This document shows, one piece after another, positions 49,901 to 52,900 of a stretch of DNA of 64,000 nt. The DNA is taken from assembly GCA_963825055.1 (NCBI GenBank), contig CAWGSK010000003.1, forward strand, positions 39,060-103,059, given 5' to 3'. A program made the position numbers. The DNA is from an uncultured Gemmatimonadales bacterium (GTDB lineage: Bacteria; Gemmatimonadota; Gemmatimonadetes; Gemmatimonadales; GWC2-71-9). The stretch's first letter is position 1. Every line of letters begins with the position of its first letter.

Positions 49901-52900
49901 CCCGGACGTGAAACTGGTGTCGGCGGTGGGTGAGTCGGAGGGTGACTTCCGGGTGCGGGTGCGCGAGGCAGGGCGGGAGCGCCGGGACAGGGAGGTGGAG
50001 AAGCTCCGGGCCCGGTACGCTCCGAAGGTGCGCCGCCTTGAGGATCAGATCCGTCGGGCCCGCCAGAAGGTTGATCGCGAAGAGTCGCAGTTCCGCCAGG
50101 CCGGCGCACAGTCGGCCATCTCTGTCGGCGCCACGGTCCTGGGCGCGCTCTTTGGGCGAAAGGTCACCAGCGTCGGCAACATCGGACGCGCCACGACTGC
50201 CATGCGCGGCATGAGCCGCGCGGGCCGGGAGAAGGGTGACGTCGCCCGGGCGCGCGAGGAGCTGGCCGCGCTGGAGACGCGCATGCAGGATCTGGATGCG
50301 GAAGCACGCGCCGCCGCGGCCGACGTGGAGGAGGCCGGCGAGGCGAGCATCGGGCCGCGCCCCGTCTCGCCCCGGAAGTCCGACATCGCCGCTTCCGTCA
50401 CGCTGCTCTGGCTCCCCTGGCGGGTTAGTGCCGAGGGTAGCCGGCCTGCGTGGCGCTCAATTGCGACACAGGTCACGGAAGGCGTGGCGTCGTCCCGCTA
50501 GACTGGGGCTTGGAGGAGGAAAACGACATGGGAGACACGTCGATCAAGAAAGTGCAGTCTGCGCACTCACCCCGCGGTCCAGGCGGCCAGCGATACCTGG
50601 CCAGCGGGACCGGCCTCGCCATGAGGCTCTGGGACGGAGAGGAGGCACGGGACGACAAGCTGAGTCACTCCCGTGCTTACGAGACAGTCGGGTACGTGAT
50701 CGCGGGAAAGGCCGAGTTGTACCTCGAGGGACAGATGGTCCTGCTGGAGCCGGGTGACTCGTGGGTCGTGCCGAAGGACGCCGAGCACCGCTACCGCGTG
50801 CTCGAACGTTTCACCGCGGTCGAAGCTACCCACCCGCCGGCGCACGCGAAGGGCCGCGACACCTGACACCCGTCCGCCGCGAGGTGCTGCGTCTCCTCGC
50901 AGCCGTTGTCATCGTGGAGATCGGGGCGGCGCTTGTCTACTCGCTGGCGCGCGTAGGTGAGGCGCCGCCCGAGACCCGCCTGTGGTTCACCCTGGTGTGG
51001 ACCCTGGTCACGCTGACCGTGGTACTTACCAGCCTCCGTCGGATCCGCCTGACCCGCGCCTCGCGGCGCTCCCCACCGGGCCATTGACAGCCCCCTGGCT
51101 GGAGGAGTAGCACGCCATGGCCGCCAGATCCACCGAGAGTGTCGCCGGCATCACGCTCAGCAACCCGCACCGGGTGCTCTATCCCGAACAGGGCGTCACC
51201 AAGCGGGGCCTGGCCGGGTACTACGAGGCGGTGGCCGACTGGATCCTGCCCCACGTGGCCGACCGGCCGCTTTCCCTGGTGCGCTGCCCCCGGGGAATGA
51301 CCGGGGAATGCTTCTACCAGAAACACGTGTCGGATTCGGTGCCGGACGCCATCCACGGCGTGGAAATCCGGGAAGAGAACGGCATTGGCGTCTACGTCAT
51401 GATCCGCGACCTGGCGGGCCTGATCGCCCTCGTCCAGCTCGGGGTGCTGGAGATGCATCCGTGGGGCGCGCGCGCCGACCGGATCGAGCGCCCGGACCGG
51501 CTCGTGATGGATCTGGACCCCGGGCCCGGCGTCACCTGGAAGACACTCCAGGAGGCGGCCGTGGAAATGCGAGGCGTCTTCGAGGAGCTGGGCCTCGAGA
51601 GCTGGCTCCGGACCTCGGGCGGCAAGGGTCTCCACGTGGTCGTCCCCTTCGAGCGCCGCACCTCCTGGGATGACCTCAAGGCCTTCACCGCCGGCATCTC
51701 GCGGCTGATGGAGCGCCGGAGCCCCTCGCGTTACGTCGCCACCATGAGCAAGGCAAAACGGCACGGGAAGATCTACGTCGACTACCTCCGTAACAGCCGC
51801 GGGGCCACCGCCGTGGCCTCCTACTCCACCCGGGCCCGCGCCGGTGCCCCGGTCGCCACGCCCCTCCGCTGGGATGAACTCTCACGCGTCGATGATCCTG
51901 CCGCGTTCAACGTGCGGTCCGTTCCCCGCCGACTGGCATCGCTCAAGGTGGACCCGTGGAACGGGTTCCTTGACGTCCGGCAGGTGATTACGAAGGGGAT
52001 GATGACGGCGGTGAGAAGCAAGAAGTGAACGGTGAAAGGTGAAAGGTGAAGCGAAGGAATCGTGTCATCTCGAGCGCAGCGAGAGATCTCAAGGGCAGCC
52101 CGGTATCGAGAGCCAGGTACAATTGAGTACCCAACGGCACTTTTGGATGCCTAACATATTCGCCGACTGCCTCATGTTCACAGCGATCTTCAACGGGAAG
52201 AACGATGTTCGCCGTGTACATGATGGCCAGCCTGACCAGGACGCTCTACGTAGGGATGACGAGTGATCTCGTGCGCCGGGTCTGGCAGCACAGGACGGGC
52301 CTTGGCGCAGGCTTCAGCGCACGCTACCGGACACGAAAGCTGGTCTGGTATGAGCTATGCCCCCAGGCGCTGCCGATTATTGCCAGGGAAAAGGAAGTGA
52401 AGAGGTGGAGTCGCCGCAAGAAGATCGCCTTGATACAGTCCGCTAACCCGCATTGGATGGATCCGGCAAAGGAGTGGTTCGGGTAGAGCAGGGATTCCAC
52501 ACGATGGCAGGCTTGAGATCTCTCAGGGCCTTCGGCCCTTCGAGATGACAGGTCATTTCTTCTGGTGAATCGCTCCGTTCCGAAACCTCCACCCGACACC
52601 CGATTCCCGATCCCCCATACCCCATGCCCGGTCCCCTTGCCCATTCCGCCCCTCCGTCCCATCCTCCCATAGCCCCCTCCGGATCGGAAACCCATGATCG
52701 ATTCCGAACGCATCTCGTCCAAGCTCCTCAAGTTCCGCCCCTCCCTCACCCTCGAACTCAAGCGCCTGGTCGGTGAACGCACCGCCCGCAACCTCCCGGT
52801 CTACGACTTCGGGCTGGGCGAGACAAAGGGCGAACTGGCCCCGCACGTACGGGACGCCGGGGTGCGTGCCTACCGCGAGGGGCAGACCATGTACGAGGAT

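Follow-up and report, generated by a model that had tools for sequence, protein, structure and literature searches.

A putative Ssn-type GIY-YIG nuclease gene between head-outward TGTC-tagged hairpin repeats in a Gemmatimonadota genome

The window analysed here, a 64,000-nt stretch of the metagenome-assembled genome of an uncultured Gemmatimonadales bacterium, raises the question of why a gene for a 93-aa GIY-YIG protein lies between the separated ends of a 91-nt palindromic element that occurs elsewhere in the genome with no gene inside it. The reading preferred here, to which we give a probability of roughly 0.85, is that the protein is an Ssn-type nuclease encoded between its own cognate hairpin repeats, which face head-outward in the NTS-ssnA-NTS layout and are of the CGTC/TGTC-tagged REP kind, with family membership argued from transitive evidence. 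Ssn enzymes are described by Chenal et al. 2025 (Nat Commun 16:2388; PMC11893778) as single-domain, site-specific nucleases of single-stranded DNA whose binding sites are the hairpin repeats beside the gene (NTS/SRM) and whose cut falls directly upstream of these, and that account already likens NTS-ssnA-NTS to insertion sequences and to RAYT/REP. The locus is another example of this published arrangement of an Ssn gene with its target repeats, not a new element type, and the preliminary description, which took the pairing of a GIY-YIG gene with hairpins to be new, had been anticipated on that point.

The arrangement at the locus, where sequence and ORF are as previously described (a 93-aa GIY-YIG gene between the split ends of the 91-nt element), is as follows.

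52025..52050, no strand: left heptamer array, GTGAAAG in 3.7 copies (TRF and sequence), outside the left end and context only
52063..52090, + strand: left 'L-type' hairpin unit (census nhmmer E 2e-7; covariance model R1 44.9 bits; DNA fold -3.3 kcal/mol)
52091..52127, + strand: left inner segment (CTCAAGGG...TATCGAGAGCC), recurring in the spacer of 91-nt copies that have no ORF (local alignments)
52128..52204, + strand: leader, found in the gene-bearing unit alone (local alignments, composition, promoter scan)
52205..52486, + strand: ssn-like gene for a predicted 93-aa single-domain GIY-YIG nuclease (ORF; Pfam PF01541; homologue alignment; tree clade II)
52502..52514, + strand: right inner segment (…GGCTTGAG), common to the ORF-less copies and inverse of the left CTCAAGGG
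52515..52550, - strand: right 'R-type' hairpin unit (nhmmer E 2e-7; R1 43.7 bits; DNA fold -8.9 kcal/mol)

The left end (52063-52095) consists of a TGTC tag and hairpin followed by CTCAAGGG; in the hairpin, tandem GA/GA forms an internal loop between a 5-bp foot (ATCTC/GAGAT) and a GC/GC inner stem, with a C directly after the palindrome, and the top strand carries the orientation recognised by Ssn enzymes. The right end (52512-52550) is an imperfect inverse of the left: read on the bottom strand, it has the TGTC tag, the foot ATCTC/GAGAT, a 2x2 internal loop that is GA opposite TG in this copy, an inner stem GGGCC/GGCCC and the C after the palindrome. A perfect inverted repeat of 13 nt pairs 52081-52093 with 52512-52524. 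Both TGTC-tagged hairpins point head-outward around the gene and are the two halves of the ~91-nt palindromic repeat. The G+C content of the gene-bearing unit is 57.8%, against 68% for the window, and falls to 52% over 52097-52204, which includes the leader. Neither a sigma-70-like promoter nor an intrinsic terminator was found by consensus scan at the locus, and an Rfam scan of 51900-52750 gave nothing above noise.

The 93-aa protein matches the Pfam GIY-YIG family (PF01541, E 7.4e-14; 52.2 bits, cut-off 22.6) over residues 2-73, has no second domain, and retains all of the family Y, Y-x-G, R, H, E and N positions in an alignment with 17 homologues (18 sequences). Its best PDB match, BH0048, is weak (E 2.3e-5, 27.6 bits; EF2693 follows at E 0.31), and no NCBIfam model matches it. 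The earlier label of a UPF0213/YhbQ-type GIY-YIG nuclease stands as to GIY-YIG, by PF01541, but the likeness to UPF0213 appears distant. A paralogue in the same genome (C18:55710-55949, ~30% identical) may be the true UPF0213 type. The 93-aa protein, product of the only Ssn-like gene in this genome, groups with Ssn-type homologues that are flanked by SRM repeats. Judged by homology with the enzymes of Neisseria, N. elongata, N. wadsworthii and Wolbachia that were assayed by Chenal et al. 2025 (PMC11893778), it would bind its hairpin in single-stranded DNA only (for example at replication forks, or in incoming or transferred DNA), recognise GTC and C where they border the palindrome on its 5' and 3' sides respectively, and hydrolyse the strand a few nucleotides 5' to the tag, inside the non-conserved flank.

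The hairpins recur throughout the genome. A profile built from six ORF-less copies of ~91-93 nt (three on C7, two on C22, one on C4), which are 85-99% identical (median 89%), matches both sides of the gene (left E 3e-8, right E 1.8e-4), as had been reported for the 91-nt copies. Homology between the unit and these copies runs from 52063 to somewhere between ~52109 and 52127, stopping at a different point from copy to copy, and again from ~52502 to 52550, its right-hand part beginning at 52485 in one copy and at 52512 in another; the gene-bearing and ORF-less forms therefore differ by a block of ~375-390 bp that comprises the leader and the ORF. The ORF-less elements keep the L-then-R order and the inner sequence of the gene-bearing unit, and a second family of ~120 nt has the same ends; both forms are dimers in which these hairpins stand head to head, and the 91-nt form corresponds to the unit minus the leader-plus-ORF block. 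An nhmmer census of the genome yields 32 hairpin units, 21 L-type and 11 R-type (labels of this analysis), arranged as 11 L/R head-to-head dimers (the gene-bearing unit included), one L/L dimer and eight solo units, which is close to the 13 copy-holding regions counted previously. Gene and flanking hairpins together make up a non-random unit, to which the 91-nt elements are the counterparts without an ORF. Two broader searches were less informative: a generic scan for GTCAT plus a 5-bp foot was too noisy (295 matches against 64-84 in mononucleotide shuffles), and genome-wide pairing of 11-mer end motifs returned mostly chance pairs.

The hairpins have a 5-bp foot, a GA/GA internal loop, an inner stem of 2 or 5 bp and a loop of 3-5 nt, and their stems show compensatory changes. 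Five main variants of the foot occur, and in the census, whose units were not chosen by an exact foot, the foot is perfect in 29 of the 32 units, the other three having only G·T pairs. Both sides have changed in five of the seven modelled pairs, a stem statistic that is inflated, since an exact 5-bp foot was required of the units modelled. The positions that Chenal et al. 2025 (PMC11893778) found critical are conserved: G-T-C ahead of the palindrome and C behind it do not vary in an alignment of 25 units, nor do the pairs A5-T33 and T6-A32; each base of T-G-T-C-A-T is present in 30-32 of the 32 units, the TGTC tag as a whole in 30, and the flank upstream of the tag carries at most 0.7 bit per position.

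These repeats agree with the CGTC/TGTC-tagged REPs described by Di Nocera, De Gregorio & Rocco 2013 (BMC Genomics 14:522; PMC3733652) in their unpaired terminal tag, the A-T and T-A pairs that open the stem, the short tail starting from C, and their intergenic, mostly head-to-head dimeric arrangement (12 such dimers here), often as heterodimers. They differ from families CGTC-1 to -4, which have continuous stems of 8-9 bp and loops of 4-5 nt, in that GA/GA breaks the stem. No associated enzyme gene was found for the tagged REPs in that study, and Gemmatimonadota were outside the five phyla that it covered (PMC3733652). With the published Ssn systems (PMC11893778) the locus shares a single-domain GIY-YIG protein of similar size (~94 aa there, 93 aa here), inverted hairpin repeats that lie on both sides of the gene and are also dispersed in the genome, and a GTC tag 5' of an AT-first palindrome that is directly followed by C; canonical NTS repeats, moreover, flank homologues that are 38-57% identical to the 93-aa protein. 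It differs in its host, a Gemmatimonadota MAG, in the number of hairpins (32 units here, where Neisseria or Wolbachia have hundreds), and in the hairpin itself, whose 5-bp foot, tandem GA/GA internal loop and second inner stem escape the published SRM motif: the degenerate form of that motif has no match at the locus and 45 chance-like matches genome-wide. The hairpins here belong to a GA-bulged class that this motif misses, which is new here, and the locus presents a divergent form of the Ssn layout, with tag, AT-first palindrome and trailing C head-outward on both sides. Among the Gemmatimonadota rows of Supplementary Data 4 (PMC11893778), four of five are without a homologue; the fifth, Longimicrobium terrae, has one, with SRM enrichment absent (0.72-fold).

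Two further systems invite comparison. Free-standing GIY-YIG homing endonucleases (I-TevI, Seg type) have a separate DNA-binding domain and cut double-stranded DNA. The catalytic domain is the same, and spread by break-induced copying is plausible here too, but the 93-aa protein consists of the catalytic domain alone and the Ssn family cuts single-stranded DNA only. REPIN-RAYT systems, or REPtrons (reportedly described by Nunvar in 2010, by Bertels & Rainey in 2011 and by Ton-Hoang in 2012), likewise place the single-copy gene of an ssDNA enzyme that recognises hairpins between inverted tagged hairpins, and have hairpin doublets scattered through the genome; there, however, the enzyme is an HUH/Y1 transposase with a covalent intermediate and the tag is GTAG, whereas here a predicted hydrolytic GIY-YIG nuclease goes with TGTC. 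Identity with REPIN-RAYT or IS200-IS605 elements was rejected, as the enclosed gene is of the GIY-YIG family and the genome's Y1 gene lies elsewhere with different inverted repeats.

The same nesting recurs across phyla. Homologues 38-57% identical in the best segment, among 53 database rows used in a tree, come from Pseudomonadota, Chloroflexota, Acidobacteriota, Bacillota, Bacteroidota and other phyla. Head-outward tagged hairpins flank them on both sides at 35 of 75 loci and on at least one side at 55 of 75, as opposed to 1/69 in control windows taken 750-1100 nt away, so the pairing of gene and hairpins is not due to chance; the nesting is seen in related genomes as well. The literal NTS consensus flanks several homologues (e.g. 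L028, L050 and L037), and the published SRM motif lies on both sides of only 11 of the 75 loci. Cucumibacter marinus DSM 18995, Hansschlegelia plantiphila and Stagnimonas aquatica have SRM-flanked homologues, 49-56% identical; Supplementary Data 4 (PMC11893778) gives an ssnA homologue for all three, and for two of them also a cd10448 homologue by psiblast.

Hairpin class follows protein clade (clade and class names are labels of this analysis). Clade I (support 100/96) has 'GA-TTGC' hairpins at all 10 classifiable loci, clade II (support 95/90), which holds the gene described here, has 'GA-YYY' hairpins at 16 of 16, and the other 41 tree rows have the plain NTS type in 28 of 31 classifiable cases. 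This tracking of hairpin classes by Ssn protein clades is new here.

Nearer relatives give a patchier picture. Strong Ssn homologues are present in 9 of 24 genomes of the same family, and in six of the eight related genomes that have at least 10 hairpin-model matches. An Ssn-like gene was undetected in the other two hairpin-rich relatives, G002 (43 matches, 93% complete) and G017 (33 matches, 98% complete, 10 contigs), and the repeats therefore persist without a resident gene. Among 16 genomes of two sister families, none has an Ssn homologue; 15 are without a match and one has two weak matches (E 0.098). Paralogues within related genomes are 29-67% identical, and no examined genome holds two near-identical copies. 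Decayed copies exist, one with an in-frame TGA (G024:C142) and one truncated at a contig end (G015:C20). Gemmatimonadota sequences require at least three origins on the tree.

The preliminary description took the 486-bp unit for an autonomous transposable element, excised and inserted by its nuclease, with the 91-nt copies as MITE-like deletion derivatives mobilised in trans; this we consider rather unlikely, although several features speak for it. The layout is IS-like, with a gene between inverted ends; the unit is poorer in G+C than the window; homologues are patchily distributed among same-family genomes, with multiple Gemmatimonadota origins and decayed copies; no dedicated transposase for CGTC REPs was found by Di Nocera 2013 (PMC3733652); and the ORF-less copies, all in L-then-R order, have one common internal junction at at least five unrelated loci, so that they multiplied after the ORF was lost. 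This single junction argues that dimers multiply on their own. Against the transposon reading, hairpin families persist in G002 and G017 with no gene detected. Inverted ends are present, but the other marks of an insertion sequence or MITE, target-site duplications and multiple identical autonomous copies, were not found: the genome has one gene copy, paralogues elsewhere are divergent, no direct repeat abuts the ends of the unit, and conservation does not extend upstream of the tag. A search for target-site duplications, missing from the preliminary description, found none. GIY-YIG enzymes hydrolyse DNA and are not known to carry out strand transfer. According to the published assays SsnA leaves the reverse strand of its site uncut (PMC11893778), and a head-to-head dimer would therefore offer one cleavable hairpin per strand, whereas IS200-like one-strand excision needs two cuts on that strand; this strand geometry speaks against simple excision of a single strand. 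Searches for an empty site or an excision joint found neither. By way of LigD, metagenome relatives are at most 61% identical, with an aminotransferase or GIY-YIG gene nearby at 0 of 80 loci; by way of the aminotransferase, 25 relatives offer only paralogues of 30-36% identity; and no LigD-aminotransferase bridge without the unit occurs among the contigs aligned to the locus, the public reads being four DNA runs from one soil study, with no RNA run listed. A single contig with an apparent joint (415 nt skipped, 21 other letters between) proved to be an ORF-less copy from elsewhere. The autonomy claimed for the unit stays hypothetical; of the MITE-like reading, the status of the 91-nt elements as ORF-less counterparts stands, by order and inner sequence, whereas their mobilisation by an autonomous unit is rather unlikely.

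Other explanations are far less probable. That the dimers are REPIN-like and moved by the genome's RAYT/Y1 transposase, with the GIY-YIG gene a passenger, would be in keeping with the presence of a Y1 transposase gene outside the window (C3:21452-21799, PF01797 E 2.6e-20) and with the inverted-doublet form of REPINs as reportedly described by Bertels & Rainey 2011; we hold it to be the least probable of all, since that gene has its own unrelated 45-nt inverted repeats (with a few solo copies) instead of TGTC hairpins, tagged hairpins of the TGTC/CGTC kind associate with Ssn-type genes across phyla, and Di Nocera 2013 saw no case of CGTC repeats around a tyrosine transposase gene (PMC3733652). 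Scarcely more probable is a chance landing of the gene in a pre-existing palindrome, or a role at the RNA level only (terminator, mRNA stabiliser, or RNase III stem like that of a 23S rRNA intervening sequence). There is a single gene-bearing copy in this genome and a transcript could fold (an ORF-less copy reaches -24.5 kcal/mol with DNA parameters), but nesting at homologue loci far exceeds that in control windows, hairpin class follows protein clade, RNA is reported not to be bound by SsnA (PMC11893778), and neither an Rfam match nor a terminator-like site was found. Compensatory changes, moreover, keep each local hairpin and not the long stem: in the three C7 copies the left hairpin has ATTTC/GAAAT, at the price of A·C mispairing within the long stem.

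As to how copies spread, we favour, over true transposition by the nuclease alone, either break-induced copying between repeat copies by host repair, a gene conversion resembling homing, or else a domesticated function in the handling of single-stranded DNA.

If Ssn genes with their two hairpins were self-propagating elements of a new mechanistic class, in which a hydrolytic nick beside cognate hairpins leads host repair to copy the unit or ORF-less dimers to new sites, a possibility that we regard as doubtful, then Ssn would supply the CGTC/TGTC-tagged REPs with the dedicated enzyme that has long been missing, and the three protein-hairpin classes seen here would represent lineages of that element that co-evolve and move between phyla. 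The locus bears on whether Ssn spreads its own repeats. It brings the Ssn-hairpin system to Gemmatimonadota and opens no new category, but the published search motif overlooks whole classes of cognate hairpins, those with GA-bulged stems and a foot of ATYYY or ATTGC. The co-variation of clade and class across phyla is what specific, co-evolving pairs of enzyme and site would predict, and is useful in mining Ssn enzymes as ssDNA tools. Elsewhere in this genome, as also observed earlier, the RAYT gene and a DUF559 gene (C8:64416-64700) are each accompanied by their own, different inverted repeats.

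The GIY-YIG gene lies between two inverted TGTC-tagged hairpins, together forming the ssn unit, in a genome bin of 3.53 Mb (35 contigs, 68% G+C, 87% complete). Positions within C3:39060-103059 are as follows:

51117-52028, LigD primase-polymerase gene, left neighbour of the ssn unit
52063-52090, left hairpin, L-type, beginning TGTCAT, ~140 nt 5' of the ORF
52205-52486, ssn-like ORF of 93 aa (Pfam GIY-YIG match, E 7.4e-14)
52515-52550, right hairpin, R-type, related to the left one and in inverse orientation, 28 nt past the stop codon
52694-53902, class I/II aminotransferase gene, right neighbour of the ssn unit

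The symmetry extends inward as a perfect 13-nt inverted repeat (52081-52093 and 52512-52524). A profile built from six ORF-less copies of ~91-93 nt elsewhere in the genome hits both ends (E 3e-8 on the left, E 1.8e-4 on the right) and therefore confirms the preliminary description, coordinates included, in which the ends of a 91-nt element are split around the GIY-YIG gene. The ssn unit has 57.8% G+C, compared with 68% for the window, and the GC3 of the ORF is 0.79, compared with 0.87-0.88 in the neighbouring genes. A heptamer array (GTGAAAG x3.7, 52025-52050) abuts the left end of the unit, and its right flank (~52590-52680) is rich in C, with a periodicity of roughly 7 nt.

The six ORF-less copies, two of which (on C22) lie within a duplicated segment, are 85-99% identical to one another. 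Their homology with the ssn unit runs from 52063 to ~52109-52127 and from ~52502 (52485 in one copy, 52512 in another) to 52550, and the block by which the two forms differ (~375-390 bp) comprises the leader plus the ORF. All six 91-nt copies, which occupy five or more different loci, have the same junction, so this form has multiplied in its ORF-less state.

Each end hairpin consists, in order, of the TGTC tag, a 5-bp 'foot' stem starting with A-T and T-A, GA opposite GA, an inner stem (2 bp in L-type and 5 bp in R-type units, as we label the two kinds), a 3-5-nt loop, and a C directly after the palindrome. Profiles of both unit types (nhmmer, E ≤ 1e-3) find 32 units in the genome, 21 L-type and 11 R-type, and a covariance model of the hairpin, R1, also gives 32 matches. 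The units are arranged as 11 L/R head-to-head dimers, one L/L dimer and eight solo L units; the ssn unit belongs to the L/R dimers, its L-type hairpin lying 5' of the gene and its R-type hairpin 3'. There are five main foot variants, each with its complement (ATCTC, ATCCC, ATTCC, ATTTC and ATCCT), and the feet are perfectly Watson-Crick paired in 29 of the 32 units, the other three departing from this by G·T pairs only. In an alignment of 25 units, including some from relatives, the GTC preceding the palindrome and the C following it never vary, and both sides have changed in five of seven modelled pairs, a figure that is inflated because the aligned units had been picked by exact foot. Three copies on C7 have ATTTC/GAAAT in the left hairpin only, a change that keeps the local hairpin and breaks the long stem, so selection acts on the individual hairpins. 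The flanks 5' of the tag are nearly unconserved (≤0.7 bit per position), and thus the repeated unit starts at the tag; no target-site duplication was seen around the repeat copies or in the aligned unit flanks.

CGTC-tagged REPs, as defined by Di Nocera et al. 2013 (PMC3733652), may carry a TGTC tag, have stems that start with A-T, and occur mostly as head-to-head dimers; those authors stressed that such REPs 'lack a dedicated transposase'. The preliminary description took the pairing of a GIY-YIG nuclease with hairpin repeats to be new, but it is already in print (Chenal et al. 2025, PMC11893778), so the locus would be a further case of the known Ssn system, with a divergent hairpin class; full-text literature searches returned no other paper on such a pairing. 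According to Chenal et al., SsnA (CDD cd10448) is a 94-aa single-domain GIY-YIG protein whose binding to the Neisseria hairpin repeat, NTS, requires that the DNA be single-stranded and whose cut falls a few bases upstream. Cutting is governed by the three bases before the palindrome and binding by the C after it; SsnA does not act on the reverse strand, on dsDNA or on RNA. They place the Ssn-related motif (SRM) near 71% of homologues, on both sides in 42%, and state that the NTS-ssnA-NTS layout 'is identical to' that of an IS and has a parallel in RAYT/REP/BIME, which they take as a hint of a domesticated mobile element.

The protein described here resembles the Ssn family in its single domain, its size and its conserved residues, and the hairpins resemble NTS in their invariant GTC and C. 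Homologues of the gene include some flanked by the literal NTS consensus and some in three genomes listed with ssnA homologues in Supplementary Data 4 of PMC11893778. Unlike the system as published, the gene has no match to the degenerate SRM motif on either flank, and that motif is present on both sides in only 11 of 75 homologue loci. UPF0213 proteins give a weak match only (BH0048, E 2.3e-5). Supplementary Data 4 records no homologue in three Gemmatimonas species and Gemmatirosa, and records one in Longimicrobium terrae without SRM enrichment (0.72-fold), which is consistent with a hairpin class unseen by the motif. The locus is best read as a putative gene for an Ssn-type ssDNA nuclease, accompanied by its cognate hairpins (probability roughly 0.85); the mode by which the copies spread is one that we infer.

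Among 40 related genomes, a match was found in 16 of 24 from the same family and in none of 16 from two sister families (the unpublished genome G014 is counted as one genome in the relatives' match, R1 and aminotransferase tallies only). Matches are strong (E ≤ 1e-15) in nine of the 24; the other seven genomes carry only a paralogue type, ~30% identical, represented in the focal genome by a second GIY-YIG gene outside the window (C18:55710-55949, Pfam E 1.5e-13), which sits within a long open frame, has no TGTC hairpins close by and may be a true UPF0213-like paralogue. At 12 inspected loci of relatives, the gene is between inverted tagged hairpins in six, beside complete dimers in four, and neither in two. 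Searching a single genome per species gave 67 homologue loci in many phyla (best aligned segments 34-70% identical). Of the 75 loci with enough flank, 35 carry a strictly defined tagged hairpin pointing head-outward on each side and 55 carry one on at least one side; of the control windows 750-1100 nt away, 1 of 69 has it on both sides. The association of gene and hairpins is real and non-random, and to this extent the preliminary description is borne out. The head-inward orientation is also raised (13/75) because whole dimers cluster at these loci. Among individual relatives, one decayed gene (L203, G024:C142:20-970) is interrupted by an in-frame TGA and retains CCTC-tagged hairpins on its flanks, another (L200, G015:C20:9380-9943) is truncated by the contig end, and in L002 (G015) and L004 (G006) the ORF runs into the 3' hairpin, giving a repeat-encoded C-terminal tail.

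Two well-supported clades stand apart from the bulk in a maximum-likelihood phylogeny of 74 proteins, which is based on 91 columns and leaves many forks open. Clade I (14 rows, support 100/96) has GA-TTGC hairpins in 10 rows and unclassifiable ones in four; clade II, which includes this gene (19 rows, support 95/90), has GA-YYY in 16, including L020, apparently a chance match, and three unclassifiable; the remaining 41 rows comprise 28 plain NTS-type, two GA-TTGC, one GA-YYY and 10 unclassifiable. Protein clade thus appears to go with hairpin class, a pattern and not a test, since the classes are our own labels set after the data were seen and the rows are related. Paralogues within one genome carry differing classes (e.g., in relatives G007, G015 and G024), and the Gemmatimonadota label changes eight times on the tree, at least three of these being forced by supported branches. 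R1, trained on GA-YYY units only and therefore blind to other classes, has 32 matches in the focal genome and 54, 43, 39, 36, 33, 22 and 10 in relatives G018, G002, G015, G006, G017, G007 and G024, with 0-6 in each of the remaining 17 genomes of the family; 15 of 16 sister-family genomes have none, and G037 has two at E 0.098. Six of the eight R1-rich genomes have a strong Ssn homologue; neither a protein query nor the Pfam GIY-YIG model found an Ssn-like gene in G002 (93% complete) or G017 (98% complete). Some Wolbachia are likewise repeat-rich without the gene, as recorded in Supplementary Data 4 of Chenal et al. 2025 (PMC11893778). Many of the G017 matches are clustered in two stretches (C1:32553-54803 and C8:1382-24464).

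The preliminary description regarded the unit as an autonomous mobile element, and propagation of some kind is favoured by the junction common to the ORF-less copies, by a base composition atypical for the genome, and by a patchy, polyphyletic distribution that includes decayed copies. Transposition by the nuclease alone, however, is difficult to reconcile with the presence of each gene type in a single copy per genome, with the lack of visible target duplications, with the hydrolytic chemistry of GIY-YIG enzymes, and with the head-to-head dimer, which gives each strand only one hairpin in cleavable orientation. Autonomous mobility is therefore, on balance, rather doubtful, and the preliminary interpretation as a whole is supported in part. 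Movement of the hairpin elements by a RAYT is unlikely because the Y1 transposase gene has unrelated inverted repeats of its own, and either chance insertion of the gene or a purely RNA-level role of the repeats is contradicted by the recurrence of the nesting across loci and by compensatory changes that preserve local hairpins.

Two further genes outside the window are, as previously described, boxed in by their own repeats. The RAYT-type Y1 gene (region C3:21198-21934) is flanked by 45-nt inverted repeats, 93% alike and unrelated to the TGTC hairpins, with about five partial solo copies (on C22, C17, C7, C13 and C15). The DUF559 (Vsr-like) gene (C8:64416-64700, region C8:63900-65250) is preceded by ~4 copies of a 26-nt palindrome (CCCCCTCTCCATGAATGGAGAGGGGG type) and followed by ~6 inverted copies. 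At this locus and on C35 (C35:17890-19240), TGTC-tagged L-type hairpins are interleaved with the 26-nt palindromes in mosaic clusters reminiscent of BIMEs/NIMEs. Eight 23S_rRNA_IVP (four-helix-bundle) genes, also outside the window (C12:281050-281361, C13:276166-276471, C13:112759-113073, C7:210428-210739, C9:7481-7789, C2:172520-172831, C12:680432-680740 and C7:175804-176025), are mostly bracketed by heptamer tandem arrays 5' and their reverse complement 3', the heptamer being gene-specific (e.g., GGCAAGT, GACTAGT, GGCGGAC); they are another kind of 'boxed-in' small gene than the hairpin-flanked ssn gene. Short heptamer arrays are common in intergenic DNA of the window (6325-6349, 11143-11211, 40928-41035, 47185-47210 with 47432-47465, 52025-52050, 58954-59038 and 60810-60836), and two pairs look inverted (AGTGATT/TCACTAC and CAGGGAG/TCCCTAC).
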